The notes under the pieces are model-generated. The model saw only the letters and a program-made list of their open reading frames with translations, had not been told where the DNA came from and ran no database searches. A program made the position numbers and the translations under genes. Shown here piece after piece: positions 1-13,211 of a stretch of 13,211 nucleotides of DNA (positions are counted from its first letter, which is position 1; every line of letters begins with the position of its first letter). Source of the stretch: Myxococcota bacterium (GTDB taxonomy: Bacteria > Myxococcota_A > UBA9160 > PR03); contig JBFIML010000070.1 of NCBI GenBank assembly GCA_041611735.1, forward strand, positions 1 through 13,211, in the 5' to 3' direction.

Positions 1-19
1 GCGACTCGCCCCAGTCCAT
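1..19 (-). CDS. Possible 5' end of a divergent gene running off the window (MDWGES...)
   Basis: Minus strand reads GGAGG-GATGGC-ATG GAC TGG GGC GAG TCG: an SD motif 6 nt before an ATG at 19. Only 6 codons are visible, so no product can be assigned. Confidence 0.35.
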
Positions 20-134
20 GCCATCCCTCCTCGGGCCGGCGAGGCCCGCCGGCGACGGAGTGTTCCCCGCGGCGTCGCCGGGCGCGACCCGGCGGCTTCG
101 CTACCTTCATCCGGGGTTCACGTCCGGAGGCCCC

Positions 135-1265
135 ATGCCCCCCCAGGTCCGCGAACCGGTCCGCGAGCAGGACGTCCTCGAGGCGCTACGCCCCATCGTA
201 GACCCGGACTTCGGACGCAGCATCGTGGACCTCGGCTTCGTGAAGCAGGTCCGCATCGACGGCGGGCGGGTCGCCTTCGCAATCGAGCTCACCACACCCG
301 CCTGCCCGGTCAAGGCCGAGTTCGAACGCAGCGCCCGGGAGCGGGTGGCGGCGCTGCCCGGCGTGGAGGCGGTGGAGGTGCACATGACCTCCCAGACCCG
401 CGGCCGGACGACCGTGGGCGGCCAGGGCGGGCCGCACCCGGAGATCCTCCCGGGGGTCCGCAACGTGCTGGCCGTGGCCTCCGGCAAGGGTGGCGTCGGC
501 AAGAGCACGGTGGCCGTGAACCTGGCCCTGGCCCTGCGCGAGAGCGGCGCGACGGTGGGCCTGATGGACGCCGACGTCTACGGCCCCTCGCTGCCCCTTC
601 TCACCGGGGTCTCGGGCCGGCCCCCGGTGCACGAGAAGCGGATCCTTCCCCACGAGGGCTACGGGCTGAAGCTCATGTCGATGGGGTTCTTCCTGACCGA
701 CGACTCGCCCGTGATCTGGCGCGGCCCCATGGTGCACGGCCTCGTGCGACAGTTCCTGACCGACGTGGAGTGGGGCGAGCTCGACTACCTGGTGGTGGAC
801 CTGCCCCCCGGGACCGGCGACGCCGCCCTGACGCTCACCCAGCAGGCCCCCCTCTCCGGTGCGGTGATCGTCACGACCGCCAACCAGCTCGCGCTGATCG
901 ACGCCCGCAAGGGACTCCGGATGTTCGAGAAGGTCAGTGTGCCGGTGCTCGGCATCATCGAGAACATGTCCTACTTCGTGCCGCCGGATCTGCCGGATCG
1001 CAAGTACCACCTCTTCGGCCAGGGCGGCGGCCGACGCGTGGCCGAGGAGATCGGCGTCGAGTTCCTGGGCGAGATTCCGATCGACCCGCGCGTGGTGGAG
1101 GGCGGGGACCGGGGCCAGCCGATCCTCGTCTCGGCCCCGGATTCGCCCGCGGCCGAGGCGCTGCGGACGCTGGCGGGCCACGTCGCCCGCAAGCTCGCCG
1201 TGCTGGCGAGCCGCACGCCCCCCACGGCCGACGCGAACATCACCTGGGTGACGGATCCGGCCTGA
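135..1265 (+). CDS. apbC: Mrp/NBP35 (ApbC-type) Fe-S cluster carrier ATPase with an N-terminal FeS-assembly (MIP18/DUF59-like) domain
   Basis: N-terminal DPDFGRSIVDLGFV...ELTTPACP; deviant Walker A VASGKGGVGKST; DADVYGPS; PVIWRGPMV; WGELDYLVVDLPPGTGD; GIIENMS. ATG 135 follows GGAGG (126-130), so the ORF-track start at 18 is probably too early. Confidence 0.95.
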   Translation: MPPQVREPVREQDVLEALRPIVDPDFGRSIVDLGFVKQVRIDGGRVAFAIELTTPACPVKAEFERSARERVAALPGVEAVEVHMTSQTRGRTTVGGQGGPHPEILPGVRNVLAVASGKGGVGKSTVAVNLALALRESGATVGLMDADVYGPSLPLLTGVSGRPPVHEKRILPHEGYGLKLMSMGFFLTDDSPVIWRGPMVHGLVRQFLTDVEWGELDYLVVDLPPGTGDAALTLTQQAPLSGAVIVTTANQLALIDARKGLRMFEKVSVPVLGIIENMSYFVPPDLPDRKYHLFGQGGGRRVAEEIGVEFLGEIPIDPRVVEGGDRGQPILVSAPDSPAAEALRTLAGHVARKLAVLASRTPPTADANITWVTDPA

Positions 1266-1401
1266 GGAGACGGAGTCGTCGGGACGCGGCTTGCCCGGAT
1301 CGAGTCCCGGGGACGGACATGGACTTCCCGACCCACCAGCTCCCCCGCCTTGACGTCATCCGGAGGGACGCCTGCGACCAATCCCGAGCAGGAGACTCGC
1401 C

Positions 1402-1833
1402 ATGACCCGCCCGACACGGAGCAGCGCCACCGTCATCCCCTGCCTGCGTTACCAGGACGCTCCCAAGGCCATCGACTGGCTGTGCCGGGCCTTCGGCTTC
1501 GAGAAGCAACTGGTGGTCCCCAACGACGACGGGACCATCGCCCACGCCCAGCTCACCCATGGGCGCGGCATGATCATGCTGGGCTCCGCGGGCCGTCACG
1601 GCGGCGGCTTCGACCAGCTCGTGAAGACGCCCGCGCAGGTGGGCGGCACCGGCACCCAGAGCTCCTACGTGGTGGTGGACGACGCCGACGCCCATCTCGC
1701 GCGCGCTCGCGCCGCGGGCGCCGAGATCGTGCTGGACATCCAGGACGCGGACTACGGCGGCCGCGGCTACACCTGCCGGGATCCCGAGGGCCACGTCTGG
1801 AGCTTCGGCAGCTACGACCCCCGGGCCCACTGA
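1402..1833 (+). CDS. VOC family (glyoxalase/bleomycin resistance) protein
   Basis: VIPCLRYQDAPKAIDWLCRAFGF...HAQL..G.GMIMLG...YVVVDDADAH..RA.AAGAEIV...DYGGRGYTCRDPEGHVWSFG; SD AGGAG upstream. Confidence 0.93.
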   Translation: MTRPTRSSATVIPCLRYQDAPKAIDWLCRAFGFEKQLVVPNDDGTIAHAQLTHGRGMIMLGSAGRHGGGFDQLVKTPAQVGGTGTQSSYVVVDDADAHLARARAAGAEIVLDIQDADYGGRGYTCRDPEGHVWSFGSYDPRAH

Positions 1834-1840
1834 GCCAGAG

Positions 1841-3604
1841 CTACAGCCACAGCACGCTCACGATCGTCACCGTCACCCCGGCCAGCAGGAGCTGGAGCGG
1901 AACGCCGAAGCGCAGGAAGTCCGTGAAGCGATAACCGCCCGGCCCGTAGACCATCAGGTTGGTCTGATAGCCGATCGGCGTCGAGAAGCTCGCCGAGGCA
2001 GCCATCATCAGGATGAACAGGAACGGACGCATCTCCATGCCCGCCGCCTCGGCGGCGGCCGCGGCGATCGGATACATGAGCACCGCGGCGGCGTTGTTGG
2101 TGATGAGCTCGGTGAGCACCATCGTCGAGAGGTAGACGCCCCCGAGGATCCCGATCGGGCCGAAGGGCCGCACGGCTTCGAGCAGTCCCTGGGCGATCTC
2201 GCGGGCCGCGCCGGTCTTGTGCAGCGCCTCGCCGATCCCGAAGGAGGCGGCGATCGCCAGGATGACGCGCACGTCCACCGCCCGCACGGCCTCGGGACCC
2301 GTCAGGCAACGCGCGGCGATCAGGGCTCCCGAGGCCAGCAGGGCCGCGGTGAGCAGGGGAATCCCCACCACCACGTGCGCCAGGACCATGGCCAGCAGCA
2401 GCGCCGAGGCGATCCAGGCCCGCTCGTGGCGCGGGGGCTCGCTTCCCGCCACCTCGGCCACCAGGGCGAAGGTCGAGTCGTTGCGGCGCTCGCGCTCGAA
2501 GGAGGGGTGGGTCTCGACCAGCAGCGTATCGCCCGCCCGCAGCACGATGTCGCCGATGCGGCCGGCGATCCGCTCGCCGTGGCGATGGACGGCGATGATC
2601 GCGGCGCTGTACTGGGTGCGGAAGCCGCTCTCGCGCACGCTGCGTCCCGCCAGGGGAGAGGCGGCTCCCACCACCGCCTCCACCAGCCGGCGCTGGCTGC
2701 GCGCCTGCGCGAGCTTGTCCACCTGGTCGTCGGCGGGCACCAACCCCCGGATCCGGCGCAGGTCCACCACGCTCTCCACCAGGCCCACGAAGAGCAGCCG
2801 ATCCTCGGGTGCGATGCGCACGTCGGGCGCTACGGCGGGCATGGGCTCGCCGCCGCGCTCGATCTCGGCCAGGAAGAGGCCGGGGAGGTGCCGGAGCCCC
2901 GCCGCCTCGATGGTCTGGCCCACGATCGGGGAGCCCGGCTCGACGCGCATGGCGACTGCGTACTGCCGGGGGTTCGCGAGGGCGGGCTCCGGCGCGCCCC
3001 GGTCGGGCAGCAGCCAGCGGGACAGCAGCAGCACGTAGGTCATGCCGATCAGGGCGACCGGAACTCCCACCCAGGCGATCTCGAAGAGACCCACGCGCAG
3101 GCCCCGATCCGCCGCGAGGCCTGCCACCAGCAGGTTCGTGCTCGTCCCGATCAGCGTCACCGTCCCACCCAGAATGGTGGCGTAGCTGAGGGGCATCAGG
3201 AGCTTGGAGGCGGCGATGCGGGTGCGCCGCGCCCAGTCCATCACGACGGGAACCATCACCGCCACGACGGGCGTGTTGTTGACGAAGCCCGAGACGAAGG
3301 CGACGGGAAGCATGAGCCGCAGCTGCGCAGTCCCCACGCGGCGGGGATGGCCGAGCCAGCGGCGCGCCACGAAGTCGAGCGCCCCGGTCTCGCGCAGCCC
3401 CGCCGCCACCACGAAGAGGACGGCGACCGCCGCCACGCCCTCGTTGGAGAAGCCCGCGAGCCCCTCCTTGGGCGTGATCACGCCGAGCGCCAGGAGCGCG
3501 GTCAGGCCAGCGACCAGGACGAGATCCGGGGCGGCGACGTTCCACGCCAGGGCCGCCACCACCGAGAGGGTCACCGCGACCGCGACCCAGGCGTGCCAGT
3601 CCAT
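1841..3604 (-). CDS. SLC13/DASS-family permease with two TrkA-C domains (putative sulfate or di/tricarboxylate transporter)
   Basis: Many TM segments; motifs GFSNEG, SGFVNNTPVV, TLIGTSTNL, TELITNNAAA, ASFSTPIGYQTNLMVYGPGGY.F.DF.R.G; central soluble TrkA-C repeats (SPIVGQTIEAAGLR, SPLAGRSVRESGFR). ATG 3604 follows GGGAG; a TATGCT -10-like box lies at 3642-3647. Confidence 0.92.
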   Translation of the reverse strand: MDWHAWVAVAVTLSVVAALAWNVAAPDLVLVAGLTALLALGVITPKEGLAGFSNEGVAAVAVLFVVAAGLRETGALDFVARRWLGHPRRVGTAQLRLMLPVAFVSGFVNNTPVVAVMVPVVMDWARRTRIAASKLLMPLSYATILGGTVTLIGTSTNLLVAGLAADRGLRVGLFEIAWVGVPVALIGMTYVLLLSRWLLPDRGAPEPALANPRQYAVAMRVEPGSPIVGQTIEAAGLRHLPGLFLAEIERGGEPMPAVAPDVRIAPEDRLLFVGLVESVVDLRRIRGLVPADDQVDKLAQARSQRRLVEAVVGAASPLAGRSVRESGFRTQYSAAIIAVHRHGERIAGRIGDIVLRAGDTLLVETHPSFERERRNDSTFALVAEVAGSEPPRHERAWIASALLLAMVLAHVVVGIPLLTAALLASGALIAARCLTGPEAVRAVDVRVILAIAASFGIGEALHKTGAAREIAQGLLEAVRPFGPIGILGGVYLSTMVLTELITNNAAAVLMYPIAAAAAEAAGMEMRPFLFILMMAASASFSTPIGYQTNLMVYGPGGYRFTDFLRFGVPLQLLLAGVTVTIVSVLWL

Positions 3605-3798
3605 GGGATCTCCCTGCCGGCTCCAGGCGCTCGGAGCCCGGAGCATACCGCTCGGCTGCGCAGTCGCGGCAAGGGGCCCGAGGTCGAGGGCGAGGCCGGC
3701 GGGGTTTCCGCTGCGGCCCGACGCCGCGGAAGGGACCTTCCTCGAGGGTGGAAGACATTTTCCCTCCTCGCGTGGGCCTCGCATTCCAAATCACCGGA

Positions 3799-3811
3799 AA
3801 TCAGGAGCTTG
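3799..3811 (+). promoter_or_regulatory. Putative IHF binding site
   Basis: AATCAGGAGCTTG matches WATCARNNNNTTR, in a locally AT-richer patch just upstream of a sigma-54 promoter. Confidence 0.55.
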
Positions 3812-3825
3812 GAGCACGTGGGGCG

Positions 3826-3841
3826 TGGCTCCGAAATTGCT
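3826..3841 (+). promoter_or_regulatory. Sigma-54 (RpoN) -24/-12 promoter for the PEP-CTERM gene
   Basis: TGGCTCCGAAATTGCT has exact GG-N10-GC spacing and one mismatch to TGGCAC-N5-TTGCW. It lies about 110 nt upstream of ATG 3954. Confidence 0.75.
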
Positions 3842-3953
3842 TGCAAGGAGGTGCAAAGGGCGCCGGCCCTGCGGCTCCTCCCCCTGCTGCCGTTCGAGCT
3901 CCTGGATCTCGTTCCCCCCCACCGCCGGGCGCGGCCTCACCGGGAGGGCAACG

Positions 3954-4712
3954 ATGAGCGCCATCATCCGACGATTCTCATTGGCCGCGCTGGGGTCCCT
4001 GGCCGCGTTGGCGATCCTGTTCGTGGCACCCGACGCGCGGTCCCTCGACTGCGGACCGGGTCCCCACTGGATCGACACCTGCCCGGCGGGCCTCGACGTG
4101 TTTCCGAACTCCGGTGCCCTGGTCGGGATCGACCTCGACCTGGACACGATCGAGGACTTCAGCGTGGTCCTGTTCGGACCGACCGTGATCCAGCGCCAGG
4201 CCGCCTCGGACGTCTCGCTCAACTTTCCCGGCGCCCTGGGCTCCTCCCTCGACAGCCACATCGACGTGATCGACACCGAGATCGTCTCGCTGAGCCTGAC
4301 CGGCGGGGGCTTCACCCTCACCGCCGGCCAGGGCATCACCCCGGGCGGCGTGTTCCTCCTGCCTTCGCTCGGCGCGATCGTGGAGCAGGCGGGTGACCCC
4401 ACGCTGGGCGACAGCTTCTTCGACGTGTTCTTCGAGGTGGATCTCGGCGGGGGGAACTTCGCCTACAACCAGAACCCGTTGACGGTCGTCGCGAACCCCC
4501 CGCTGCAAGGAGTGCCCCCGATCCCCCAGCCCTACATCCACCCGACGGGCCCGATTCCGCTCTTCACGCTTCCGGTCGGCGGCGTCCAGATTGCCAACCT
4601 GGTGAGAGCCGTACATGTGACGCCGGAGCCCGGGAGCGGCCTGCTGCTCGGAGCCGGGCTGCTCGGCGTGGCGCTCGCGCGCTCGCGTCGGGCGTCGCCG
4701 CCGCGCTCCTGA
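3954..4712 (+). CDS. PEP-CTERM sorting domain-containing exported protein (252 aa)
   Basis: SD GGGAGG; signal peptide MSAIIRRFSLAALGSLAALAILFVAPDARS; C-terminal VTPEPGSGLLLGAGLLGVALARSRR (PEP motif, TM helix, Arg cluster). It is the 3' part of track ORF 3204..4712. Confidence 0.9.
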   Translation: MSAIIRRFSLAALGSLAALAILFVAPDARSLDCGPGPHWIDTCPAGLDVFPNSGALVGIDLDLDTIEDFSVVLFGPTVIQRQAASDVSLNFPGALGSSLDSHIDVIDTEIVSLSLTGGGFTLTAGQGITPGGVFLLPSLGAIVEQAGDPTLGDSFFDVFFEVDLGGGNFAYNQNPLTVVANPPLQGVPPIPQPYIHPTGPIPLFTLPVGGVQIANLVRAVHVTPEPGSGLLLGAGLLGVALARSRRASPPRS

Positions 4713-4746
4713 ACGCGGGTACCGCCCGCCCGATCGAGCTGCTTGG

Positions 4747-5451
4747 CTACCGCCCGTGCAGGAGCGGCGCGTAGAGAACGGGCGCCGGGCCGACGGGCCC
4801 CTGGCTCACCCGCTTCAGGTAGTCGTCGTAGTCGATCGACTCGAGCGCGACACGCGGGTCGGGCTCGAAGAAGGCGTCCGGGATGGCCAGCTCCCGGGTC
4901 CAGTCCACGTAGTCCAGGCGCGCCTTCGAGGTGGTGCCGCGGTCGAAGGTCTCGAGGCGGACGGGGAGCGCGAGCGCGTCCTTCGTGACCCAGAGCTCGC
5001 GGCGACCGCGTGCGTCGGTGACCCGGTAGACGTCGCACAAGCGGCCCGCCAGCCGCTCGCTGCGCACGCGCTCCGCACCCTCCGCCAGCAGACGTTCGCG
5101 ATCGTCGCCGAAGGGCCGTCGCCCCGACGCGTCGGCCGCCTGGGCCGCAGGGCTGCGCCGGATCGCGATGCCGCGACCGGCCAGGGCGTCGATCACGTAG
5201 TAGCGCTCGCCGTTCACGAGGGTCACGATGGGGCGGCCGAGGAGCACGGTTTCCGCCCGGAAGCGGCTGCCGCTCGCCCACAGGAACTCGACACGCAGCG
5301 GGACGTCCCCGCTCGTCACCCGCTGGGCGAACCAGGTCTCGGCGCCCTGCGCCGCGCCCCCGGGAAGGGCCAGGGCGAGGACCAGCCCGGCCCGCAGCAC
5401 CGGACGGGCGAAACGGCGCGAGCCGAAGCTCCCAAGCTCAGTTCTCGACAC
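4747..5451 (-). CDS. Secreted/periplasmic hypothetical protein, possibly LolA-like fold (234 aa)
   Basis: GTG 5451 follows AAGGAGG and overlaps the upstream gene's stop; signal-peptide-like RRFARPVLRAGLVLALALPGGAAQG; beta-rich pattern with E.LAGR.CDVY, ELWV, LPVRLE and IPDAFFEP resembling LolA-superfamily proteins. The fold is an inference. Confidence 0.7.
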   Translation of the reverse strand: MSRTELGSFGSRRFARPVLRAGLVLALALPGGAAQGAETWFAQRVTSGDVPLRVEFLWASGSRFRAETVLLGRPIVTLVNGERYYVIDALAGRGIAIRRSPAAQAADASGRRPFGDDRERLLAEGAERVRSERLAGRLCDVYRVTDARGRRELWVTKDALALPVRLETFDRGTTSKARLDYVDWTRELAIPDAFFEPDPRVALESIDYDDYLKRVSQGPVGPAPVLYAPLLHGR

Positions 5452-6682
5452 CAGATTCCTCCTTCGCAACGAGTGCGGCGATGGGACCCGCTTCCATGGC
5501 GTCCGGAATCGGGACGCCGAGCAGGGCCAGCACGGTGGGCGCCACGTCGAGGGCCGAGACCCGCCCGACCTCGGTGCCCGCCGGAACCGCGCGCCCGTAG
5601 GCCACGAAGAGCGCCTCCAGGCCCGGGGCCCCGGGCGGGTAGCCGTGGGCGGCTCGCATGCCGAGCCGGGCGAAGCCGAAGGCGGCGGCCAGACGGGCCC
5701 CGCCGCCGGGGCTCCCGATCGCCGTCCCGGGCGGGGCCACCACCACCACCGCGCCGAAGCGCGGGTGTGCCACGCGCAGCCCGGCCGGCGCCTGCTCGCG
5801 CCGCCACGCCTGGAGGCCGCTCTCCCGGGCCACCGCCAGCACCGCTTCGACGCTCTCCGCCGGCGCCACCACCGAGGCGAAGCCCCCGCCCCCGAGGACG
5901 CGGGCCGCCGCCAGGCCGGCCCGCGTGAGCGCCCCCGCCAGGTCCACGGCCCGCTCCACGGGCAGGCTCCCGTGGTCGGAGACGACGAGCAGGGTCGTAT
6001 GGGACCACAGCCCCCGGGCGGCGACGCCCGCCACGAGCCGCTCCAGGGCGCGGTCCTGGCCGCGCAAGGCCGTGGCGACCCGGGGCGAGTCGGCACCGTG
6101 GCGGTGGGCCGCGTCGTCGCCGCCACGGAAATAGCTGGTGATGAGCCGCGGGCGCTGCGCCGGGTCGGGGAGGTCCAGCCAGGCCAGCATCTGCGCGACC
6201 TTCTCCTGCTCCGGCGTCGACGCGTCGAAGGGGCGCCAATGGCGCGGCCCGAGCCCGCTGCGCCAGGGCCCCTCGGAGCCGACCCAGTGGAAGGCGGCGG
6301 AGGGAATCCCACGCCGCGCCAGGATCGACCACAGCGGCTCCGTCTCGCTCCAGGTGGGGTCGGAGGCGTAGCGGTGCAGGCCGCGCTCCGGATCCAGGAA
6401 GACGTTGTTTACGACCCCGTGCACCTCCGGTGCGACACCCGTCACGAAGCTCACGTGGTTCGGAAAGGTGTTGCTCGGGAAGACCGGGACGAGGCGCCCG
6501 CGCGCGCCCTCCCGGGCCAGGCGCCCCAGGGTGGCGAGTCCGGCCGTCTCCACCGCGTCCGCCGGAGTGCCGTCCATGGAGACCAGCAGGACGGTCGGCT
6601 CCACGGCTCCGACGGCGGGGGCGAGCCCGAGAAGGACGGCAAGGAGCAGCGCCAGCCTGCGCAGGAGGAGGAGCGGCTTCAT
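5438..6682 (-). CDS. Alkaline phosphatase superfamily nucleotide pyrophosphatase/phosphodiesterase (NPP type), exported
   Basis: Signal peptide MKPLLLLRRLALLLAVLLGLAPAVGA; VLLVSMDG; FPSNTFPNH.SFVTG (catalytic Thr); DDAAHRHG; VVSDHG; AHGY metal ligands. It is the 3' part of track ORF 5438..7762. Confidence 0.92.
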   Translation of the reverse strand: MKPLLLLRRLALLLAVLLGLAPAVGAVEPTVLLVSMDGTPADAVETAGLATLGRLAREGARGRLVPVFPSNTFPNHVSFVTGVAPEVHGVVNNVFLDPERGLHRYASDPTWSETEPLWSILARRGIPSAAFHWVGSEGPWRSGLGPRHWRPFDASTPEQEKVAQMLAWLDLPDPAQRPRLITSYFRGGDDAAHRHGADSPRVATALRGQDRALERLVAGVAARGLWSHTTLLVVSDHGSLPVERAVDLAGALTRAGLAAARVLGGGGFASVVAPAESVEAVLAVARESGLQAWRREQAPAGLRVAHPRFGAVVVVAPPGTAIGSPGGGARLAAAFGFARLGMRAAHGYPPGAPGLEALFVAYGRAVPAGTEVGRVSALDVAPTVLALLGVPIPDAMEAGPIAALVAKEESGVEN

Positions 6683-6735
6683 GAAAGCATCGCTTCGACG
6701 CGATGCCGGCGCCCGCGATTCGACGGCGCCACCCG

Positions 6736-7863
6736 TCAGGCCGGCGCGGCCGCGTAGCGGGCGAGTCGCACCGGGGCGCGACGCGGCCCCCAGGTGCCCG
6801 GCTCGGCCTCGAAGATTCCGGCGCAGGGGGCCCCGCAAGCCCGGCAGCGACCCTCCGGGGTGAGCTGCCAATCCGTGAGCACGTACCAGTCGCGCCCGAC
6901 GAGGCGCGCGCCGCAGGCGTGGCAGGTCGTGCTCTGGCCCTCCTCGTCGTGGACGTTTCCGGTGTAGACGTACCGCAGCCCGTGGCGGCGGGCGATGGCG
7001 CGGGCGCGGCGCAGGATGCCCGCCGAGGTGTGCGGCTTGTCCATCATCTTGTAGTCGGGGTGGAAGGCCGTGAAGTGCCAGGGGACGTCGATGCCCAGAT
7101 GCTCCACGATCCAGCGGCTGGCGGCCTCGATCTCCGCATCCGAGTCGTTCTCCCCCGGGATGAGGAGCGTGGTGATCTCGAACCAGACGTCGGTCTCGCG
7201 CTTCAGGTAGACGAGCGTGTCGAGCACCGGCTGGAGGTGCCCGCTGCAGACCCGGTGGTAGAAGTCCTCGCTGAAGGCCTTGAGATCCACGTTGGCGGCA
7301 TCCATGTGGGCGTAGAACTCCCGGCGCGGCGCCTCGCACATGTAGCCCGCGGTCACGGCGACGCTTCGGACCCCGACCGATCGGCAGGCCTTCGCCACAT
7401 CCACCGCGTACTCGAGGAAGATCACGGGGTCGTTGTAGGTGAAGGCCACGCTGCGGCAGCCGAGCTCCCGGGCGGCGCGGGCGATGGTCTCGGGAGTGGC
7501 GGCGTCGGCCAGGGTGTCGATCTCCCGCGACTTGCTGATGTCCCAGTTCTGGCAGAAGCGGCAGGCGAGGTTGCAGCCCGCCGTTCCGAAGGAGAGCACC
7601 GGCGTGCCGGGCAGGAAGTGGTTGAGCGGCTTCTTCTCGATGGGATCGACGCAGAAGCCGCTTGACCGACCCCAGGTGGTGAGCACCATCTGGTCGTCCT
7701 GGCGGGCGCGGACGAAGCACAGGCCCCGCTGGCCCTCGAGGAGGCGGCAGTAGCGCGGGCACAGGTCACATTGGATCTTCCCGTCCGGCAGGATGTGCCA
7801 GTAGCGGCCCGGGACGATCGATCCCTCCGGGGAACGAGGCGGGGACTCTCGGGAAGGAGACAT
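6736..7863 (-). CDS. amrS: AmmeMemoRadiSam system radical SAM enzyme
   Basis: N-terminal QCDLCPRYC...GLCFVR; DPIEKKPLNHFLPG; radical SAM motif GCNLACRFCQNWDIS; AFTYNDP; NVDLKAF; EITTLLIPGENDS; HFTAFHPDY; YVYTGNVHD; C-terminal CHACG/CRACG. Start ATG 7863 (TTG 7884 possible). Adjacent to amrB/amrA. Confidence 0.95.
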   Translation of the reverse strand: MSPSRESPPRSPEGSIVPGRYWHILPDGKIQCDLCPRYCRLLEGQRGLCFVRARQDDQMVLTTWGRSSGFCVDPIEKKPLNHFLPGTPVLSFGTAGCNLACRFCQNWDISKSREIDTLADAATPETIARAARELGCRSVAFTYNDPVIFLEYAVDVAKACRSVGVRSVAVTAGYMCEAPRREFYAHMDAANVDLKAFSEDFYHRVCSGHLQPVLDTLVYLKRETDVWFEITTLLIPGENDSDAEIEAASRWIVEHLGIDVPWHFTAFHPDYKMMDKPHTSAGILRRARAIARRHGLRYVYTGNVHDEEGQSTTCHACGARLVGRDWYVLTDWQLTPEGRCRACGAPCAGIFEAEPGTWGPRRAPVRLARYAAAPA

Positions 7864-7932
7864 GGAAGAGCAATCCGTCGTCAAGCATGGGTCCCGCGCG
7901 GCTCCGCGTCAATCGAGCCGGGGGGCTTCGGC

Positions 7933-8727
7933 GTGACGCGCGTACGCCCGCCGGCCGTGGCCGGGCTCTTCTATCCGGCGGACGCGAAGCCCCTGCGTGC
8001 CACGGTGGAGCGCTGCCTCGCGGAGGGCCGGCGGCGCGGCCTCGACGGCCCCGCACCCAAGGCCTTGATCGTCCCGCACGCGGGCTACGTCTACTCCGGG
8101 CCGGTGGCTGGCTCGGCCTACGCCCTGCTCGAGCCCCTGCGCGACGCCCTCGAGCGCGTGGTGCTGCTGGGCCCCTCCCACCGGGTGCCCGTGCGCGGCC
8201 TCGCCCTCTCCCGGGCCGACGCCTTCGCCACTCCCCTCGGCGAAGTGCCGCTCGACGCCGACGCCGCGGCCCGCGTGGCCGACCTGGCGCAGGTGACGGT
8301 CTCGGATGCGGCCCACGCGGAGGAGCACAGCCTCGAGGTCCAGCTTCCCTTCCTGCAGGAGCTCCTCACCGACTTCACCCTGGTGCCCTTCTCGGTGGGG
8401 AACGCCTCGCCGGACGAGGTGGCCCAGGTCGTGGACGCGCTCTGGAACGGCCCCGAGACCCTGATCCTGATCAGCTCGGATCTGTCCCACTACTACGACT
8501 ACGAGACCGCGCGCCGCCTCGACGCGGCCACGACGCGGGCCATCGAGGCGCTGCGGCCCGAGGACCTGGACGAGGAGAGCGCCTGCGGGCGGGTGCCCGT
8601 GCGGGGACTGCTGGTCTCGGCGCGCCGTCACGGACTCACGGCTCGCACCCTGGACGTGCGCAGCTCCGGCGATACGGCAGGCCCGCGGGACCGGGTGGTG
8701 GGCTACGGATCGTATGCGTTCGCCTGA
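7933..8727 (+). CDS. amrB: AmmeMemoRadiSam system protein B (MEMO1 family)
   Basis: VRPPAVAGLFYP, PHAGYVYSG, LLGPSH, TPLGEV, EEHSLEVQLPFLQ, ISSDLSHY, ACG, SGDTAG...VVGY. GTG 7933 chosen from the family N-terminus. Confidence 0.95.
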   Translation: MTRVRPPAVAGLFYPADAKPLRATVERCLAEGRRRGLDGPAPKALIVPHAGYVYSGPVAGSAYALLEPLRDALERVVLLGPSHRVPVRGLALSRADAFATPLGEVPLDADAAARVADLAQVTVSDAAHAEEHSLEVQLPFLQELLTDFTLVPFSVGNASPDEVAQVVDALWNGPETLILISSDLSHYYDYETARRLDAATTRAIEALRPEDLDEESACGRVPVRGLLVSARRHGLTARTLDVRSSGDTAGPRDRVVGYGSYAFA

Positions 8728-9298
8728 GGAGGCCGCCGCCGAACGGCTCTCGCCCGGGGATCGGGCCTCGCTCCTGGAGGTGGCCCGCGCCTCCGTGGAC
8801 CACGGCCTGCGGGAGCAGCGACCCGTTCCGCTGGAGCCGGAGCGCTTCGCCGGCCTGCTTCGCGAGCTGGGAGCGAGCTTCGTGACCCTGCGGGTGGAGG
8901 GCTCCCTGCGAGGCTGCACGGGCGCCCTCGAAGCCTGCCGGCCCCTGGTCGAGGACGTGGCGCTCCACGCCTTCTGCTCCGCCTTCCAGGACCCGCGCTT
9001 CCCACCCCTGCGCGCCGAGGAGCGCGCAGGCCTCGAGTTCCACGTGGCGGTCCTCGGCCCGCCCGAGCCCCTGCGGTTCGAGGACGAGGCGGGGCTGCTG
9101 GCCCAGCTCGAGCCGGGCGTCCACGGCCTGGTGATCCAGGCAGCCGGCCGGCGCGCCACCTTCCTGCCCGCCGTCTGGGCCCAGCTTCCGGAGCCCCGGG
9201 CCTTCCTGCGGGCACTCAAGGAGAAGGCGGGCCTGCCGCGGGAGCCCGACGCGCTGCGCCTGTACGCCCTGCGCTACGTGGTGGAGGAGTTTCCGTGA
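8714..9298 (+). CDS. amrA: AmmeMemoRadiSam system protein A (AMMECR1 domain)
   Basis: GASFVTL...LRGCTG (family LRGCIG), SAFQDPRFPPL, PGVHGL, ATFLPAVW.QLP, LKEKAGL; 14-nt overlap with amrB. Confidence 0.94.
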   Translation: MRSPEEAAAERLSPGDRASLLEVARASVDHGLREQRPVPLEPERFAGLLRELGASFVTLRVEGSLRGCTGALEACRPLVEDVALHAFCSAFQDPRFPPLRAEERAGLEFHVAVLGPPEPLRFEDEAGLLAQLEPGVHGLVIQAAGRRATFLPAVWAQLPEPRAFLRALKEKAGLPREPDALRLYALRYVVEEFP

Positions 9299-9353
9299 GC
9301 AGTCGGCGGCTCACGCACACGCCGCTAGACTCGTCGTGGGAGGAGAGCTTCCG

Positions 9354-9890
9354 GTGAGCGTTGCGAGTGCCCTGGCTCCCATCGAGGTGCTGGATCCCGA
9401 GGGCCGGGCAGTCCGTCTGGGCAGCCTCTGGAAGGACCGGCCCGTCGTCCTGACCTTCATCCGACACTTCGGCTGAATGCTCTGCCGCGAGCAGGTCGCG
9501 CAGTTGCGCGACGCGTTGGACGAGATCCGGGAGCTCGGCGCGGAGCTGGTGGTGGTGGGCAACGGCCGGCCCGAACAGGCCAGGCAGTTCAAGGAGGAGC
9601 GGCAGCTCGACTTCCCGGTGCTCGTCGACCCGGAGCTGATCGCCTACCGGGCCGCGGAGCTGCGGCGAGGAGCCTCGACCTTCGGCCTCGGGTCGCTCCG
9701 CGGCGGGTTGCGCGCCCTGCGCAAGGGCCACCTCCAGGGCCGCACCCAAGGCGACCCCTGGCAGCAGGGCGGGGTCTTCGTCGTCACCCCGGCGGAACGC
9801 GTCGCCTTCTCCTACGTGAGCGAGGAGGCCGGCGACCATCCGGAGACCAGCGCCGTCCTGGAAGCGCTGCGCCGGCTCCCGAGCGCCTGA
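9354..9890 (+). CDS. Peroxiredoxin-like (AhpC/TSA-2, PRXL2/SelU/SelL-related) selenoprotein, Sec at codon 41 (TGA 9474-9476), 178 aa
   Basis: SD GGGAGGAG then GTG 9354: MSVASALAPIEVLDPEGRAVRLGSLWKDRPVVLTFIRHFG-TGA-MLCREQ..., in frame with track ORF 9477..9890. TGA falls at the first Cys of the family RHxGCxxC motif; C-terminal DP..AY and GDPWQQGGVFVV; hairpin just downstream. Confidence 0.88.
9477..9520 (+). promoter_or_regulatory. Candidate bacterial SECIS element
   Basis: Stem GTCGCGC (9495-9501)/GCGCGAC (9506-9512) with loop AGTT, 25 nt after the TGA. Possible lower stem 9481-9488/9513-9520 with G-U pairs and one mismatch. Confidence 0.65.
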
Positions 9891-9902
9891 GCGCGTCTCT
9901 CG

Positions 9903-10169
9903 TCACGGAGCCGTCTCGAAGATCGCCGCGTGGAGGGCCTCCAAGCTGGGCAGGAAGCCGTCCGCCACGGGTCCCTGGTCGCGCACCAGGAGCTCGAGCT
10001 GGAGGACGAGGCGCGCCCGCTCCTCCCGGTCCCGGGCGCGGCGCAGCTGGCGCAGCTGGCGCTCGATGCGTGCGAAGACGTCGTTGCCGTGCCGCGGCTG
10101 GCGACGGCGTCCGAGCCACTCGCGCAGCTCCCCCAGACACTGGCCCAGCAGGTATTCGATCCGGTCCAC
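9903..10169 (-). CDS. Small hypothetical alpha-helical protein (88 aa)
   Basis: GTG 10169: MDRIEYLLGQCLGELREWL...FARIERQLRQLRRARDREERARLVLQLELLVRDQGP..FLPSLEALHAAIF, with amphipathic helical patterning. It fills the gap between genes, and an extended -10-like TGGTAGGCT ends 10 nt upstream. No recognisable family. Confidence 0.55.
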   Translation of the reverse strand: MDRIEYLLGQCLGELREWLGRRRQPRHGNDVFARIERQLRQLRRARDREERARLVLQLELLVRDQGPVADGFLPSLEALHAAIFETAP

Positions 10170-10179
10170 CGGACCGCCC

Positions 10180-10226
10180 AGCCTACCATCCCGCCGGCTC
10201 CCCGGGGCGACCGGCTCGGGTACAAT
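10180..10226. promoter_or_regulatory. Back-to-back sigma-70-type -10 elements for the orphan gene and the histone gene
   Basis: Minus strand TGGTAGGCT (10188-10180); plus strand TACAAT (10221-10226), followed by GGAGG (10240-10244) and ATG 10249. Confidence 0.45.
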
Positions 10227-10248
10227 GCGGCCCTTGCGCGGAGGTCCC

Positions 10249-10755
10249 ATGGCAGAGACGGCCCCGGGCTGGCGGCGCTGCAGCGCGTGCAAGCGCCCCA
10301 TCGACTTTGCGACCTCCTTCTGGGTCTGCAGCGTGTCCACCTGCAACCGCAAGCGCACCGGCCTCGCCTTCTGCTCCGTCGGGTGCTGGGAGGTCCATCT
10401 GCCCACGGCGAACCACCGCGAGGCCTGGGCCCTGGAGCGGACCGCCCCCACCCGCGCCGAGGCCGCCGCGCAGGCACGCGGTGAGAGTCCGCCGCGCCCA
10501 CCGCGGCGCGTGCTGGTGCGCGACGCGGAGAGCGGAAAGACCCAGGGCCCCGCCGCTCGCCAGCTCCCGATCGAGATCCTGATCGTGGCGAGCCGCTTGA
10601 GGGACTACGTGCGTGCCCGCTCGGGCATGAACACCTCCGACGGGGTGCTCGAGCCGCTCTCGGAGATCGTGCGCGAGGTGTGCGACCAGGCCATTCGCAA
10701 CGCGGCGGCGGAAGGCCGCAAGACGCTGCTGGAGCGCGACGTCCCGAAGCGCTGA
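10249..10755 (+). CDS. Bacterial histone-fold protein with N-terminal Cys6-His2 (ZZ-like) zinc finger (168 aa)
   Basis: SD GGAGG; N-terminal C11xxC14, C27x4C32, C42x3C46, H50, H56; Ala/Pro/Arg linker; C-terminal EILIVASRLRDYVRARSGMNTSDGVLEPLSEIVREVCDQAIRNAAAEGRKTLLERDV with a histone alpha1-L1-alpha2-L2 pattern and the RKTxxxxD signature. Confidence 0.88.
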   Translation: MAETAPGWRRCSACKRPIDFATSFWVCSVSTCNRKRTGLAFCSVGCWEVHLPTANHREAWALERTAPTRAEAAAQARGESPPRPPRRVLVRDAESGKTQGPAARQLPIEILIVASRLRDYVRARSGMNTSDGVLEPLSEIVREVCDQAIRNAAAEGRKTLLERDVPKR

Positions 10756-10764
10756 CCCCCGCGT

Positions 10765-11100
10765 CTACCCCGTCGCCGGGGGAGGCACCGGAGACGCAGC
10801 CGGCGTCCGCCTCATGGCCCGCGCGCAGGTCAGCGCCCGCAGCCCGGCGGCCGCGAGGACCGCCAGGGCGAAGGGCACGTAGAAGGGATTCTCGAGCGCC
10901 CGTGGTGCGTAGCTCTGGGCGAAGACGATCCAGACATACCAGGCTCCCAGGGTGTGGAGCCGGCGCCAGCGTAGCGGGCCGAGCCGGGCCACGGCCCGGT
11001 CCGAGGAGGTCGCGGCCATGGCGGCGATCAGGACGTAGGCAAAGCCACCGCCCACGATCGTGGTCGGCTGGAGTTCGCTGCGGAACGGCTGCGGGAAGGC
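10765..11100 (-). pseudogene. 5'-truncated ferric-reductase-like (MsrQ-type) membrane protein remnant
   Basis: AFPQPFRSELQPTTIVGGGFAYVLIAAMAATSSDRAVARLGPLRWRRLHTLGAWYVWIVF carries the TS...LG..W..LH motif. The frame has no start codon between the TGA at 11206-11208 and GTG 11055, so the N-terminal TM helices are missing. Confidence 0.6.
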
Positions 11101-11101
11101 C

Positions 11102-11340
11102 TCAAGGCCCGGAGGCCGAAGGCTCCGGCAAGCGCACGGCCACGGAGCGCGAGGTGTCCTGGAGCAGCCCCACCCAGAGGTCCGCCAGACCGTACTTGGC
11201 GCGCATCAGCGCGCGAACGCGGGCGTGCCCGGCGGGGCACCCGGCACCGGCTCGGCGCGCAGCGCCTGCGGCACGCCGTCGAGCACGAGCTCCACCGCCG
11301 GCTGGCCCGAACGCGCCCGGCTGCCACGGAGTCTCGTGCC
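11102..11340 (-). pseudogene. Frameshifted remnant of a split-barrel (deazaflavin-dependent oxidoreductase/DUF2255-like) gene
   Basis: Protein-like segments lie in two frames: GQPAVELVLDGVPQALRAEPVPG (frame of ORF 11206..11550) and HARVRALMRAKYGLADLWVGLLQDTSRSVAVRL (frame of ORF 11102..11368). The family is inferred from the P.VEL...RA.PV...M.AKYG pattern. Confidence 0.45.
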
Positions 11341-11410
11341 TCCCCGGCGGGGATTCGCGCGCAGGCACGCACCGGAGAGGTCCCCACGCTCCTGCCCCCC
11401 GTCGAGCCCC

Positions 11411-11827
11411 TCAGCGGGGGTGCAGCACCATCTGGGTGCAGCGGAACAGGGCCACGGCCTTCCCGGTAGCCTCGTCCGACACCTCCACGTCCCAGACGTG
11501 GGTGCTGCGGCCCCGGTGCACCGGCCGCGCTCGTCCCGCCACGGCACCACCCAGGCGCACCGTGCCCAGGAAGTTCGCCTTCATCTCGAGGGTGGTGAAG
11601 CTGGCTCCCTCGGGCAGGTTGGGTCTCATGCCACAGGCACACAGCCAGTCGGCCAGGGTGATCACCACCGGGGCCCAGAGGAAGCCGGTCCCGGCCACGA
11701 GCGGCGCCGTCACCTGGAGACGGCCCGTCACCAGCTCGGGCTCGCAGCGGAGCACCTCCACGCCGACCAGGCCGGGGTGCCGGCCGCGGGCAAACTCGTT
11801 GGCACCCCTCACGCGGTCGTCGGACAT
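11411..11827 (-). CDS. PaaI family thioesterase (hot-dog fold)
   Basis: GLVGVEV...GFLWAPVVITLAD..C, FTTLEMKANFLG, ARPVHRGRSTHVWDVEV, ALFRCTQMVL. Confidence 0.92.
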   Translation of the reverse strand: MSDDRVRGANEFARGRHPGLVGVEVLRCEPELVTGRLQVTAPLVAGTGFLWAPVVITLADWLCACGMRPNLPEGASFTTLEMKANFLGTVRLGGAVAGRARPVHRGRSTHVWDVEVSDEATGKAVALFRCTQMVLHPR

Positions 11828-11833
11828 GCGCGA

Positions 11834-12256
11834 TCAGACCCGCTTCGAGCCCTTGCGACTCGAACGCGGCGGCGGGTTCTTCGCCACGAAGCGCCGACCC
11901 TCGACCAGTTTGAGCAGGTCGAAGGCGCTCAGGACTCCGACCACCTTCTGCTCGTGGGTGACGACCACGCGGTGGATCTTTCGATTGCGCATGACGCGGG
12001 CCGCGGTGCTCACGTCGCCGTACCGGGGGACGGTGTAGACCTTCTGGGTCATGATCGTGCGGACGGGGGAGCTGGCCTTGAGCGCGGGGACGAGGTCGGT
12101 GGCGGACACGATGCCGACCGGTCGCCCCTCGGCGTCGACCACCGGGATGGCGGTCACCCCATTGCGCTCGATCAGCTTGCGAACGTGCTCGATGCTCTTG
12201 TGGGGCTGGGTGGTCACGACGGTCTCCGTCATGAGCTCGTGGACCCGGACGTTCAT
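11834..12256 (-). CDS. CBS domain-containing protein (tandem CBS pair)
   Basis: VHELMT..VVT, AIPVVDAEGRPVGIVSATDL, VRTIMT, IHRVVV...VVGVLSAFDLL; SD GGGAGGAG. Confidence 0.93.
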   Translation of the reverse strand: MNVRVHELMTETVVTTQPHKSIEHVRKLIERNGVTAIPVVDAEGRPVGIVSATDLVPALKASSPVRTIMTQKVYTVPRYGDVSTAARVMRNRKIHRVVVTHEQKVVGVLSAFDLLKLVEGRRFVAKNPPPRSSRKGSKRV

Positions 12257-12286
12257 GGCTCCTCCCGCCAGCGACCGACGCGCGCC

Positions 12287-12295
12287 AGCATACCA
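12287..12295 (-). promoter_or_regulatory. Extended -10 promoter element for the CBS-PaaI unit
   Basis: Minus strand TGGTATGCT (TGnTAnnnT), about 30 nt upstream of ATG 12256. Confidence 0.45.
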
Positions 12296-12331
12296 CGCCC
12301 GCGGAATGGGTCCGGACGTCGGGCTTCGCAG

Positions 12332-12727
12332 CTACGACCAGAACTCGTCGACCGCATGGAGGTCCCAGACGAACTCCCAGATCTCCACCGGTCGGCCGTT
12401 CTCGAGGCGCATCTTGAGACAGGTCGGGTTGTCGAGCTGGCGGCCCTGACGCCGCGCGCGGCCGCGGAAGAAGGCCACGGCGTGGGCATCGTTGGCGAGC
12501 ACGTCCTCGAGCTCGAGCTCGAAGGAGCCGTGCGTGAGCGCGCCCACCTGCGCCAGGAAGCTGAAGATGGCGTCGCGCCCGCGGTGCGTCCCGGCCAGGC
12601 GTCCGTCCCTGCCCGGGAAGTGCCACACCGCCTGCTCGGGGATCGCGTCGCGAACGGCACCCACGTCCCGCCGGCGGAAGGCGTCGAAGAGAGCCCGGAT
12701 GTGCGCTGCGTTCGGGTGCTCGGTCAT
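12332..12727 (-). CDS. SnoaL-like / NTF2 family protein
   Basis: HPNAAHIRALFDAF.RRDV...AVWHFPG..LAGTHRGRDAI, DVLAND.HAV, ENGRPVEIW..DL.AVDEFWS. Start ATG 12727 (GTG 12733 possible). Confidence 0.9.
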   Translation of the reverse strand: MTEHPNAAHIRALFDAFRRRDVGAVRDAIPEQAVWHFPGRDGRLAGTHRGRDAIFSFLAQVGALTHGSFELELEDVLANDAHAVAFFRGRARRQGRQLDNPTCLKMRLENGRPVEIWEFVWDLHAVDEFWS

Positions 12728-12988
12728 GGCCACCGCCTTCGCGAGCCTAGCCCAGGGCCGTGCACCCCTCGGCTCGGGGACGACGAGCCGGAAGGGCAGC
12801 TGGAGGCGGTGTCGGGCGGGCGTTCCCCCCGCAACGGCAGGACCGCTCCGCGGCGGGCCGCGGGGAGCGCCCGGGAAGGTCCCGGCCTCCCCTTTCCCCT
12901 GGTTCGGAGGTACGATGTCGGGGCAACGCCGGCGACGAAGACCCCGCGGTGGAGGTCGCTCGCGGCGACGGGCAGCAAGGAGAGCGGA

Positions 12989-13204
12989 ATGGGTGAGAGC
13001 GTCTACACGGTGGTCGAGCTGGTGGGAACGAGCACGGAGTCCTGGGAAAAGGCGGCTGCAGCGGCCGTGCAGCAGGCTTCGAAGAGCTTGCGGGATCTGC
13101 GGATCGCGGAGGTGAAGGAGCTGGACCTGCAGCTCGAGGACGGGCGCGTGCGCCTGTACCGGGCGAAAGTCAAGGTCTCCTTCAAGTACGAGAGCGGCAA
13201 GTAG
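12989..13204 (+). CDS. Dodecin family protein (71 aa)
   Basis: SD AAGGAG; SVYTVVELVGTSTESWEKAAAAAV..ASKSLRDLRIAEV.ELD...YRAKVKVSFKYE; TACGAT -10-like box at 12911-12916. Confidence 0.93.
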   Translation: MGESVYTVVELVGTSTESWEKAAAAAVQQASKSLRDLRIAEVKELDLQLEDGRVRLYRAKVKVSFKYESGK

Positions 13205-13211
13205 CCCTCGC

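Follow-up and report, generated by a model that had tools for sequence, protein, structure and literature searches.

The stretch of DNA analysed here (hereafter, the window) comprises 13,211 nucleotides from a Myxococcota bacterium, positions 1 to 13,211 of the forward strand of contig JBFIML010000070.1 (assembly GCA_041611735.1). Our subject is a gene on its forward strand at 9354..9890, with 178 codons plus a stop, whose translation and matches to NF040769, PF13911, PF00578, and PF08534 identify its product as a SelL-related/PRXL2-like thioredoxin-fold redox protein. A single frame opens with GTG at 9354-9356, passes 40 sense codons before reaching a TGA at 9474..9476, and continues through an ATG (9477-9479) and a TGC (9483..9485) to a terminal TGA at 9888..9890. 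Codon 41, the first of these two TGA codons, very probably encodes selenocysteine (Sec, U) as the first residue of a U-x-x-C motif.

The in-frame TGA and the family of the protein

Six nucleotides upstream of the GTG lies a Shine-Dalgarno-like purine run, GGGAGGAGAG (9338..9347, forward strand), read from the sequence, and the GTG itself falls at the same position as Met1 in 9 of 13 full-length homologues (alignment A1). A preliminary description of this DNA, made from its letters and open reading frames (ORFs), had proposed a ribosome-binding site and GTG at 9354, 40 codons, an in-frame TGA, and then the same frame to 9890; both the coordinates and the peptide proved exact. It had further remarked that gene callers would give a product of 137 aa, and indeed the ORF list under translation table 11 contains only the 137-aa ORF 9477..9890 at this locus, while a 99% identical database entry (P0002) is 137 aa long. 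The G+C content at third codon positions (GC3) 3′ of the codon-41 TGA is 0.94, as in real genes. According to sequence and translation, the terminal TGA has no context downstream of the type of a selenocysteine insertion sequence (SECIS), and since this gene ends with TGA, the codon is not generally reassigned in the organism.

The TGA stands exactly at the first position of the redox motif, RHFG-U-ML-C (residues 37-44), as the preliminary description had observed. In alignment A1, column 41 is Cys in all 13 full-length homologues and column 44 in 12 of them; Cys44, encoded by the TGC and also Cys in 17 of the 17 relatives' loci that carry the TGA, is the presumed resolving Cys of the motif. 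The proposed PRXL2/SelU/SelL-type family was borne out as well. The read-through protein matches the NCBIfam model NF040769, ‘SelL-related redox protein’, with 139.8 bits (curated cut-off 120; E 6.5e-41), residues 8-171 covering profile positions 4-172 of 173, and the [C/U]-x-x-C motif after the first central beta-strand, by which membership is recognised, is present. Among Pfam models, AhpC-TSA_2 (PF13911) is matched over profile positions 1-113 of 114 (E 1.9e-18; 67.3 bits against a gathering score of 27), followed by AhpC-TSA (PF00578; E 2.2e-14, 53.9 bits) and Redoxin (PF08534; E 1.3e-7); SelP_N gave no match to the read-through protein at E ≤ 0.01.

The closest solved relative by sequence is PDB 9us9, the human prostamide/PGF synthase PRXL2B, which aligns with residues 16-172 (E 1.6e-9) such that its RRFGCVVCR, with a CxxC, falls on RHFG-U-MLCR. 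An AlphaFold2 model built from a 14-sequence input (mean predicted local distance difference test score 94.1) has a strand at 31-35 and a helix at 42-53; residue 41 lies between the two, at the CxxC position of thioredoxin-fold enzymes. Foldseek returned 9usa (again PRXL2B) as the top match to this model, with a TMq of 0.81, and then Bcp/PrxQ peroxiredoxins and ResA.

The TGA is conserved well beyond the window. A search of 41 genomes (40 relatives plus the window's own) found a match in 33, and each of the 19 best rows below the window's own contained one in-frame TGA. By locus, TGA occupies column 41 in 17 of 19 loci of relatives (RHFG*xFCR) in addition to the window, and the other two, the more distant L041 and L042, have TGC. 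The upstream 40 codons are conserved as protein in the 17 TGA loci: tblastn alignments begin at query residues 1-7 in 16 and at residue 18 in L039. In diverged paralogues with 27-58% identity, the TGA is at column 41 in all 11 matched loci, in the contexts RHFG*, RHLH*/RHLR*, and RG[VIG]W*PYCN; a twelfth paralogue locus, L054 (G026:C63), had no tblastn match at 1e-3 and is excluded from all counts. Eight further loci carry no stop and have TGC or TGT at column 41. A scan of one genome per species added 36 loci from metagenome-assembled genomes (MAGs), 35 of them with TGA and one (L080) with TGC, under the labels Candidatus Binatia, Deltaproteobacteria, Myxococcota/Myxococcales, Kofleriaceae, Polyangiaceae, Archangium, Acidobacteriota, Dormiibacterota, Desulfobacterales, and one ‘Rickettsiales’.

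Finally, in contigs of four metagenome runs (one of them possibly the source, the other three from further studies), compared over 9250-9950, no other letter occurred at 9474-9476 or at 9483-9513, and related contigs from these runs vary at the wobble positions 9464, 9470, 9473, 9477, 9479, 9480, and 9482. Among the sequencing runs found to contain this DNA, none was of RNA, which speaks neither for nor against expression. The preliminary description had predicted that alignments with homologues would extend across codon 41, with either TGA or Cys there, and this is what the relatives, paralogues, MAG loci, and alignment A1 display. The observations that it had named as damaging did not arise: close orthologues do carry the TGA, and TGC or TGT appears in none of the contigs of the four runs. 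Because the same TGA recurs across relatives, paralogues, and MAG loci, a nonsense mutation or sequencing error is excluded.

A SECIS hairpin and the selenocysteine machinery

Downstream of the UGA, at 9495..9512 on the forward strand, the transcript contains a bacterial SECIS hairpin identified by minimum-free-energy folding and by sequence constraint, with a 5′ arm GUCGCGC (9495-9501), a loop AGUU (9502-9505), and a 3′ arm GCGCGAC (9506-9512). The hairpin has 7 bp and a ΔG of -12.1 kcal/mol, starts 18 nt after the UGA with 25 nt between UGA and loop, and is part of the minimum-free-energy fold. According to the rules given in a 2026 review (PMC13188914), a bacterial SECIS element has 3-9 nt in its loop, with a G among the first two of them, 4-16 bp in its stem, a spacing of 16-37 nt, and a minimum free energy ≤ -7.5 kcal/mol, and the hairpin at 9495-9512 agrees with every one of these.

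The same 18 nucleotides encode Val-Ala-Gln-Leu-Arg-Asp, and their synonymous sites were compared among 16 orthologues with 48-62% protein identity to the window's copy. The codons are frozen: GTC in 15/15, GCG, CAG, TTG, and CGC each in 16/16, and GAC in 15 with a single GAT, which retains the pairing as G-U. All four of the four- to six-fold codon columns inside the hairpin are invariant, compared with 0 of 15 conserved columns of the same degeneracy outside it, and TTG is otherwise rare as a Leu codon in these genes.

Through compensatory changes, paralogue classes carry other hairpins at nearly the same place, for example GCACCUG-GUC-CAGGUGC, GCAUCU-GGUCG-AGAUGC, GCACCUC-GUC-GAGGUGC, UUGUCGC-AGUU-GCGACAG, GAGCU-GGA-AGCUC, CAGCUC-GGC-GAGCUG, and GUGGUGC-AGUU-GCACCGC. 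A MAFFT alignment of 29 hairpin segments (A2) had placed the hairpin classes in different registers, and it was therefore set aside both for pair counting and as the basis of a covariance model; pairs were instead counted in loop-anchored registers. In 29 Sec-form loci, which comprise 14 different hairpin sequences, 196 of the 203 stem cells are paired, against 34-93 of 203 with slid partners, in a register that was set by each sequence's own best hairpin and so favours pairing. In 27 of 29 Sec-form loci, compared with 1 of 10 Cys-form loci, the loop of the best hairpin lies 20-25 nt past the UGA and has a G among its first two nucleotides.

Two side observations concern variant hairpins. Six MAG loci of a Myxococcota subclade (L071, L088, L089, L092, L095, and L097) have no AGUU hairpin, and in these a by-eye reading finds GCGAGC-AGGUC-GCUCGC, which starts some 10 nt past the UGA and would be a shifted SECIS in a member of the same protein family. 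The locus L053 (G014 contig C50, 8562-9608) is a second gene copy in one relative, perhaps a duplicate in decay: the 3′ arm of its hairpin has a C-to-A mismatch, Arg directly follows the UGA, and the alignment stops after query residue 149.

The preliminary description had supposed that the organism possesses the machinery for Sec, and the genome of the window (4.09 Mb in 118 contigs, 95% complete) does encode all of its parts, so that the absence which would have spoken against a selenoprotein did not occur. The tRNA-Sec is 95 nt long (71.9 bits), with the anticodon TCA according to ARAGORN, and a genome profile search found SelA with 420.9 bits. The GTPase part of SelB (264.5 bits) is a 3′-open ORF at a contig end (L015 1438-2532, G000 contig C95), and another contig has a SelB wing-3 domain close to its start (L011 742-879, G000 contig C47); selB appears to be split by an assembly break. 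SelD (327.7 bits; L012 1441-2520, G000 contig C7, about 77003-77929), identified by its profile match and an in-frame TGA, is itself Sec-containing, as this TGA gives U in the active-site sequence AGGUARK. A second TGA lies 22 codons further upstream, ahead of the likely Met start of selD.

We would like to note that many related genomes (G004, G007, G026, G030, G012, and others) contain several peroxiredoxin- or thioredoxin-like matches (4-5 per genome, for example) that each include one in-frame TGA, and at least three paralogous U-x-x-C classes have a SECIS design of their own. The related lineages seem rich in redox selenoproteins.

Readings of the locus and known systems

Taken as a whole, positions 9354-9890 very probably form a single gene, the product of which is a cytoplasmic thioredoxin-fold oxidoreductase of 178 residues and of SelL-related/PRXL2 (AhpC-TSA_2) type, with a predicted Sec at residue 41. 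In bacteria, delivery of Sec-tRNA(Sec) to a UGA by SelB and a hairpin is established biology, and we infer from the parts found here that it operates at codon 41. When a ribosome reaches the UGA at 9474-9476, the hairpin at 9495-9512 would recruit SelB-GTP-Sec-tRNA(Sec), and Sec would be inserted in place of termination. In the model, Sec41 would sit at the N-terminal end of helix 42-53, after strand 31-35, i.e., where the attacking Cys is located in CxxC thioredoxin-fold enzymes. As the fold, PRXL2B, and the peroxiredoxin relatives suggest, its selenolate may attack an oxidised substrate (a peroxide, an endoperoxide, or a disulfide), after which the intermediate would be resolved by Cys44, giving a selenenylsulfide within the molecule, presumably recycled by a reductant of the thioredoxin or glutaredoxin type.

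Several results weigh against this reading, including the favourable register of the pair count given above. Two of the 29 Sec-form loci fail a simple perfect-stem test (L045 owing to a bulge, L053 owing to a mismatch), and some Cys-form loci have strong hairpins at other positions (L060, -16.6 kcal/mol; L058, -12.6 kcal/mol). The whole 96-nt region folds no better than its shuffles (z = -1.04; 24 of 200 as good), so that in DNA of 72% G+C the hairpin is not set apart by its folding energy alone. An Rfam scan of 9300-9950 at E ≤ 10 detected no SECIS family and returned three chance-level miRNA or riboswitch matches, a result which is expected since bacterial SECIS elements are diverse. As to function, the canonical peroxidatic-Cys motif has a conserved Pro and a Thr/Ser upstream; this active-site motif is absent here, where Sec follows F-I-R-H-F-G, and peroxidase activity is thus not assured. 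Finally, none of 51 orthologue loci (1.5-3 kb flanks) holds any of six neighbouring ORFs of the window at E ≤ 1e-5. The gene accordingly behaves as a stand-alone unit, and its context, not being conserved, gives no clue to the substrate.

Could the TGA nevertheless be a lesion? A pseudogene that arose from a TGC- or TGT-to-TGA nonsense mutation in a CxxC redox gene would yield a 40-residue fragment or no product at all, and the single base that separates TGA from TGC and TGT, the codons found at column 41 in Cys-form homologues, speaks for such an origin. However, 17 of 19 relatives', 11 of 11 paralogue, and 35 of 36 MAG loci share this TGA and conserve the protein before and after it, the hairpin behind it is frozen at synonymous sites, GC3 remains at 0.94 3′ of the TGA, and the genome holds the Sec machinery; we give this explanation practically no chance. 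Decoding of the UGA as a standard amino acid, either Trp or Gly under a variant code or Cys or Trp through near-cognate suppression, is highly improbable. No result of our analysis favours it, and the gene's own terminal TGA, the dedicated tRNA-Sec, SelA, SelB, and SelD, the redox Cys at the homologous position, and the agreement of the downstream hairpin with the rules for bacterial SECIS elements all speak against it.

It might also be proposed that the real product is the 137-aa protein from the ATG at 9477, with the 40 upstream codons forming a separate small ORF or an untranslated leader. The ATG directly after the TGA lends itself to this, as does the 137-aa entry P0002, and a search of a protein collection of 5.8 billion entries seems at first to add further such records. 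Among the best 120 entries, which we examined, 15 reach the N-terminus (14 with Cys at column 41, and one, P0005, with Arg) and 105 are N-terminally truncated, and 27 of the truncated entries begin at residue 42, the position of this ATG. Yet 71 of the 105 begin at residue 51 instead (the remaining 7 elsewhere in 43-64), and residue 51 is Leu51, encoded by the TTG at 9504-9506 that spans the loop and 3′ arm of the SECIS hairpin. Since 71 of 105 starts fall on this loop TTG and not on codon 42, the database starts of the truncated homologues are gene-caller artefacts. Codon 42 is moreover CTG, CTC, ATC, GTG, CCC, CCG, or CGG in orthologues and paralogues, with no conserved start, and a protein beginning there would be without strand 31-35 and the attacking redox residue, while the 40 N-terminal residues are conserved and can be aligned to the Cys homologues of full length. 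We see only the slimmest chance that the shorter protein is the real product. The selenoprotein of 178 residues is the reading that we retain in what follows.

How does this selenoprotein relate to those already described? Under NF040769, a full-length Cys-form homologue (P0009, 57% identical) bears the NCBI name, whereas the window's copy has Sec at that position and its database record is the truncated 137-aa form. PRXL2B (9us9, 9usa) shares a GD..Q.GG block near the C-terminal half, but it is eukaryotic, is only 22-23% identical, and has Cys in place of Sec; the lipid endoperoxide on which it acts is without a known counterpart here. Bcp/PrxQ proteins (PDB 5epf, 3hjp, and 2cx3) align in fold and in the N-terminal half (E 1e-5 to 4e-5; TMq about 0.7). 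A canonical peroxiredoxin (Prx/Bcp) was considered and rejected, as Prx structures match residues 5-97 only, and we do not class the protein as a peroxiredoxin proper because F-I-R-H-F-G-U lacks the canonical motif. SelL, reportedly described by Shchedrina et al. in 2007 as a eukaryotic/marine selenoprotein with U-x-x-U, likewise has a Prx-like thioredoxin fold with Sec in the motif equivalent to CxxC. Identity with SelL proper was rejected too, as codon 44 is TGC here and Cys in 17/17 of the relatives' TGA loci.

The nearest described counterparts are bacterial. PMC2398784, which calls SelL ‘a Prx-like protein’, lists in its Table 2 for the Global Ocean Sampling (GOS) survey the families Prx-like 1 (pfam00578, UxxC, 225 Sec sequences), Prx-like 2, and Prx-like 3, and U-x-x-C Prx-like proteins are there among the commonest bacterial selenoprotein families of the Sargasso Sea and GOS surveys. 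Compared by description, the Prx-like families that Zhang and Gladyshev catalogued (Sargasso Sea 2005, GOS 2008) share with the present protein a thioredoxin/peroxiredoxin-like fold, U-x-x-C, many Cys homologues, and a bacterial SECIS within the ORF. A 2006 paper (PMC1794560) reports a ‘Prx-like thiol:disulfide oxidoreductase’ in several Deltaproteobacteria, and a table in the 2026 review (PMC13188914) lists Prx-like PF00578 with UxxC/UxxU, Redoxin PF08534 with UxxC, and ‘Prx-like thiol:disulfide oxidoreductase’; neither NF040769 nor PF13911 is named in the text of that review. According to PMC2398784, bacterial U-x-x-C Prx-like selenoproteins have been catalogued since 2005-2008.

Gene neighbourhood, distribution, and annotation

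The selenoprotein gene is preceded on the forward strand by genes for AmmeMemoRadiSam system protein B (7771-8727; TIGR04336, 269.6 bits) and AmmeMemoRadiSam system protein A (8714-9298; TIGR04335, 168.3 bits; Pfam AMMECR1), which overlap by 14 nt, with a gap of 55 nt between the latter and the GTG. A conserved operon with these two genes was considered and rejected, as the pairing is absent in the 51 orthologue loci within flanks of 1.5-3 kb. Elsewhere in the window, the forward strand encodes an Mrp/NBP35-type Fe-S ATPase (18-1265; PF10609 and PF01883) and, at the window end, a dodecin domain (about 13001-13204). Family matches on the reverse strand indicate a DASS-like anion symporter with a TrkA-like insert (1841-3784), a type I phosphodiesterase/nucleotide pyrophosphatase domain protein (5438-7762), a hotdog thioesterase (11411-11827), and a CBS-pair protein (11834-12256); the dodecin domain, too, was assigned by family match. 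Three ORFs, at 1402-1833, 3791-4402, and 9903-10451, have gene-like GC3 and no family match.

To place Sec and Cys forms relative to each other, we ran a quick maximum-likelihood analysis on 86 rows (62 Sec and 24 Cys forms), with column 41 treated as a gap and L048 and L050 dropped because of their short alignments. The Sec/Cys label changes 9 times on the resulting tree in the most parsimonious reconstruction, at least 3 of the changes are forced by well-supported branches, and none of 500 shuffles gave a count as low. On this tree, which is unrooted and hence does not give the direction of the switches, Cys forms (e.g., P0010/P0013 and P0003/4/7/9) are nested within Sec forms. The 35 Sec forms among the 36 named-MAG loci fall under at least six phylum labels, and MAGs labelled Binatia, Deltaproteobacteria, and Rickettsiales have the same 18-nt hairpin letter for letter. 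One could imagine that Sec prevails and is possibly ancestral in this branch of the PRXL2/SelL-related family, that gene and SECIS moved between phyla as a unit, and, given the likeness to PRXL2B, that the enzyme is a bacterial reductase of organic (endo)peroxides, such as those of lipids, which depends on Sec and in which Cys would be a poor substitute; we regard this broader picture as rather unlikely.

One full-length database entry stands apart from the Sec and Cys forms. P0005 (184 aa, from a European Nucleotide Archive source) has Arg at the Sec/Cys column (RHFGRLFC) and keeps the VAQLRD stretch of the Sec forms; its Arg could reflect a CGA codon or a gene call made under another code.

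U-x-x-C Prx-like selenoproteins having long been known, the locus raises no new biological question, and its main value is for annotation, as the active-site half of the enzyme is missing from most database records. For this one protein family, it also provides a clean set of bacterial SECIS variants supported by covariation. Because of the truncation, Sec use comes out too low in family profiles, in selenoproteome counts, and in metabolic reconstructions of uncultured Myxococcota-like bacteria. The organism itself, from a marine or sediment setting, is confirmed as a selenium user by its tRNA-Sec, SelA, SelB, and Sec-containing SelD.

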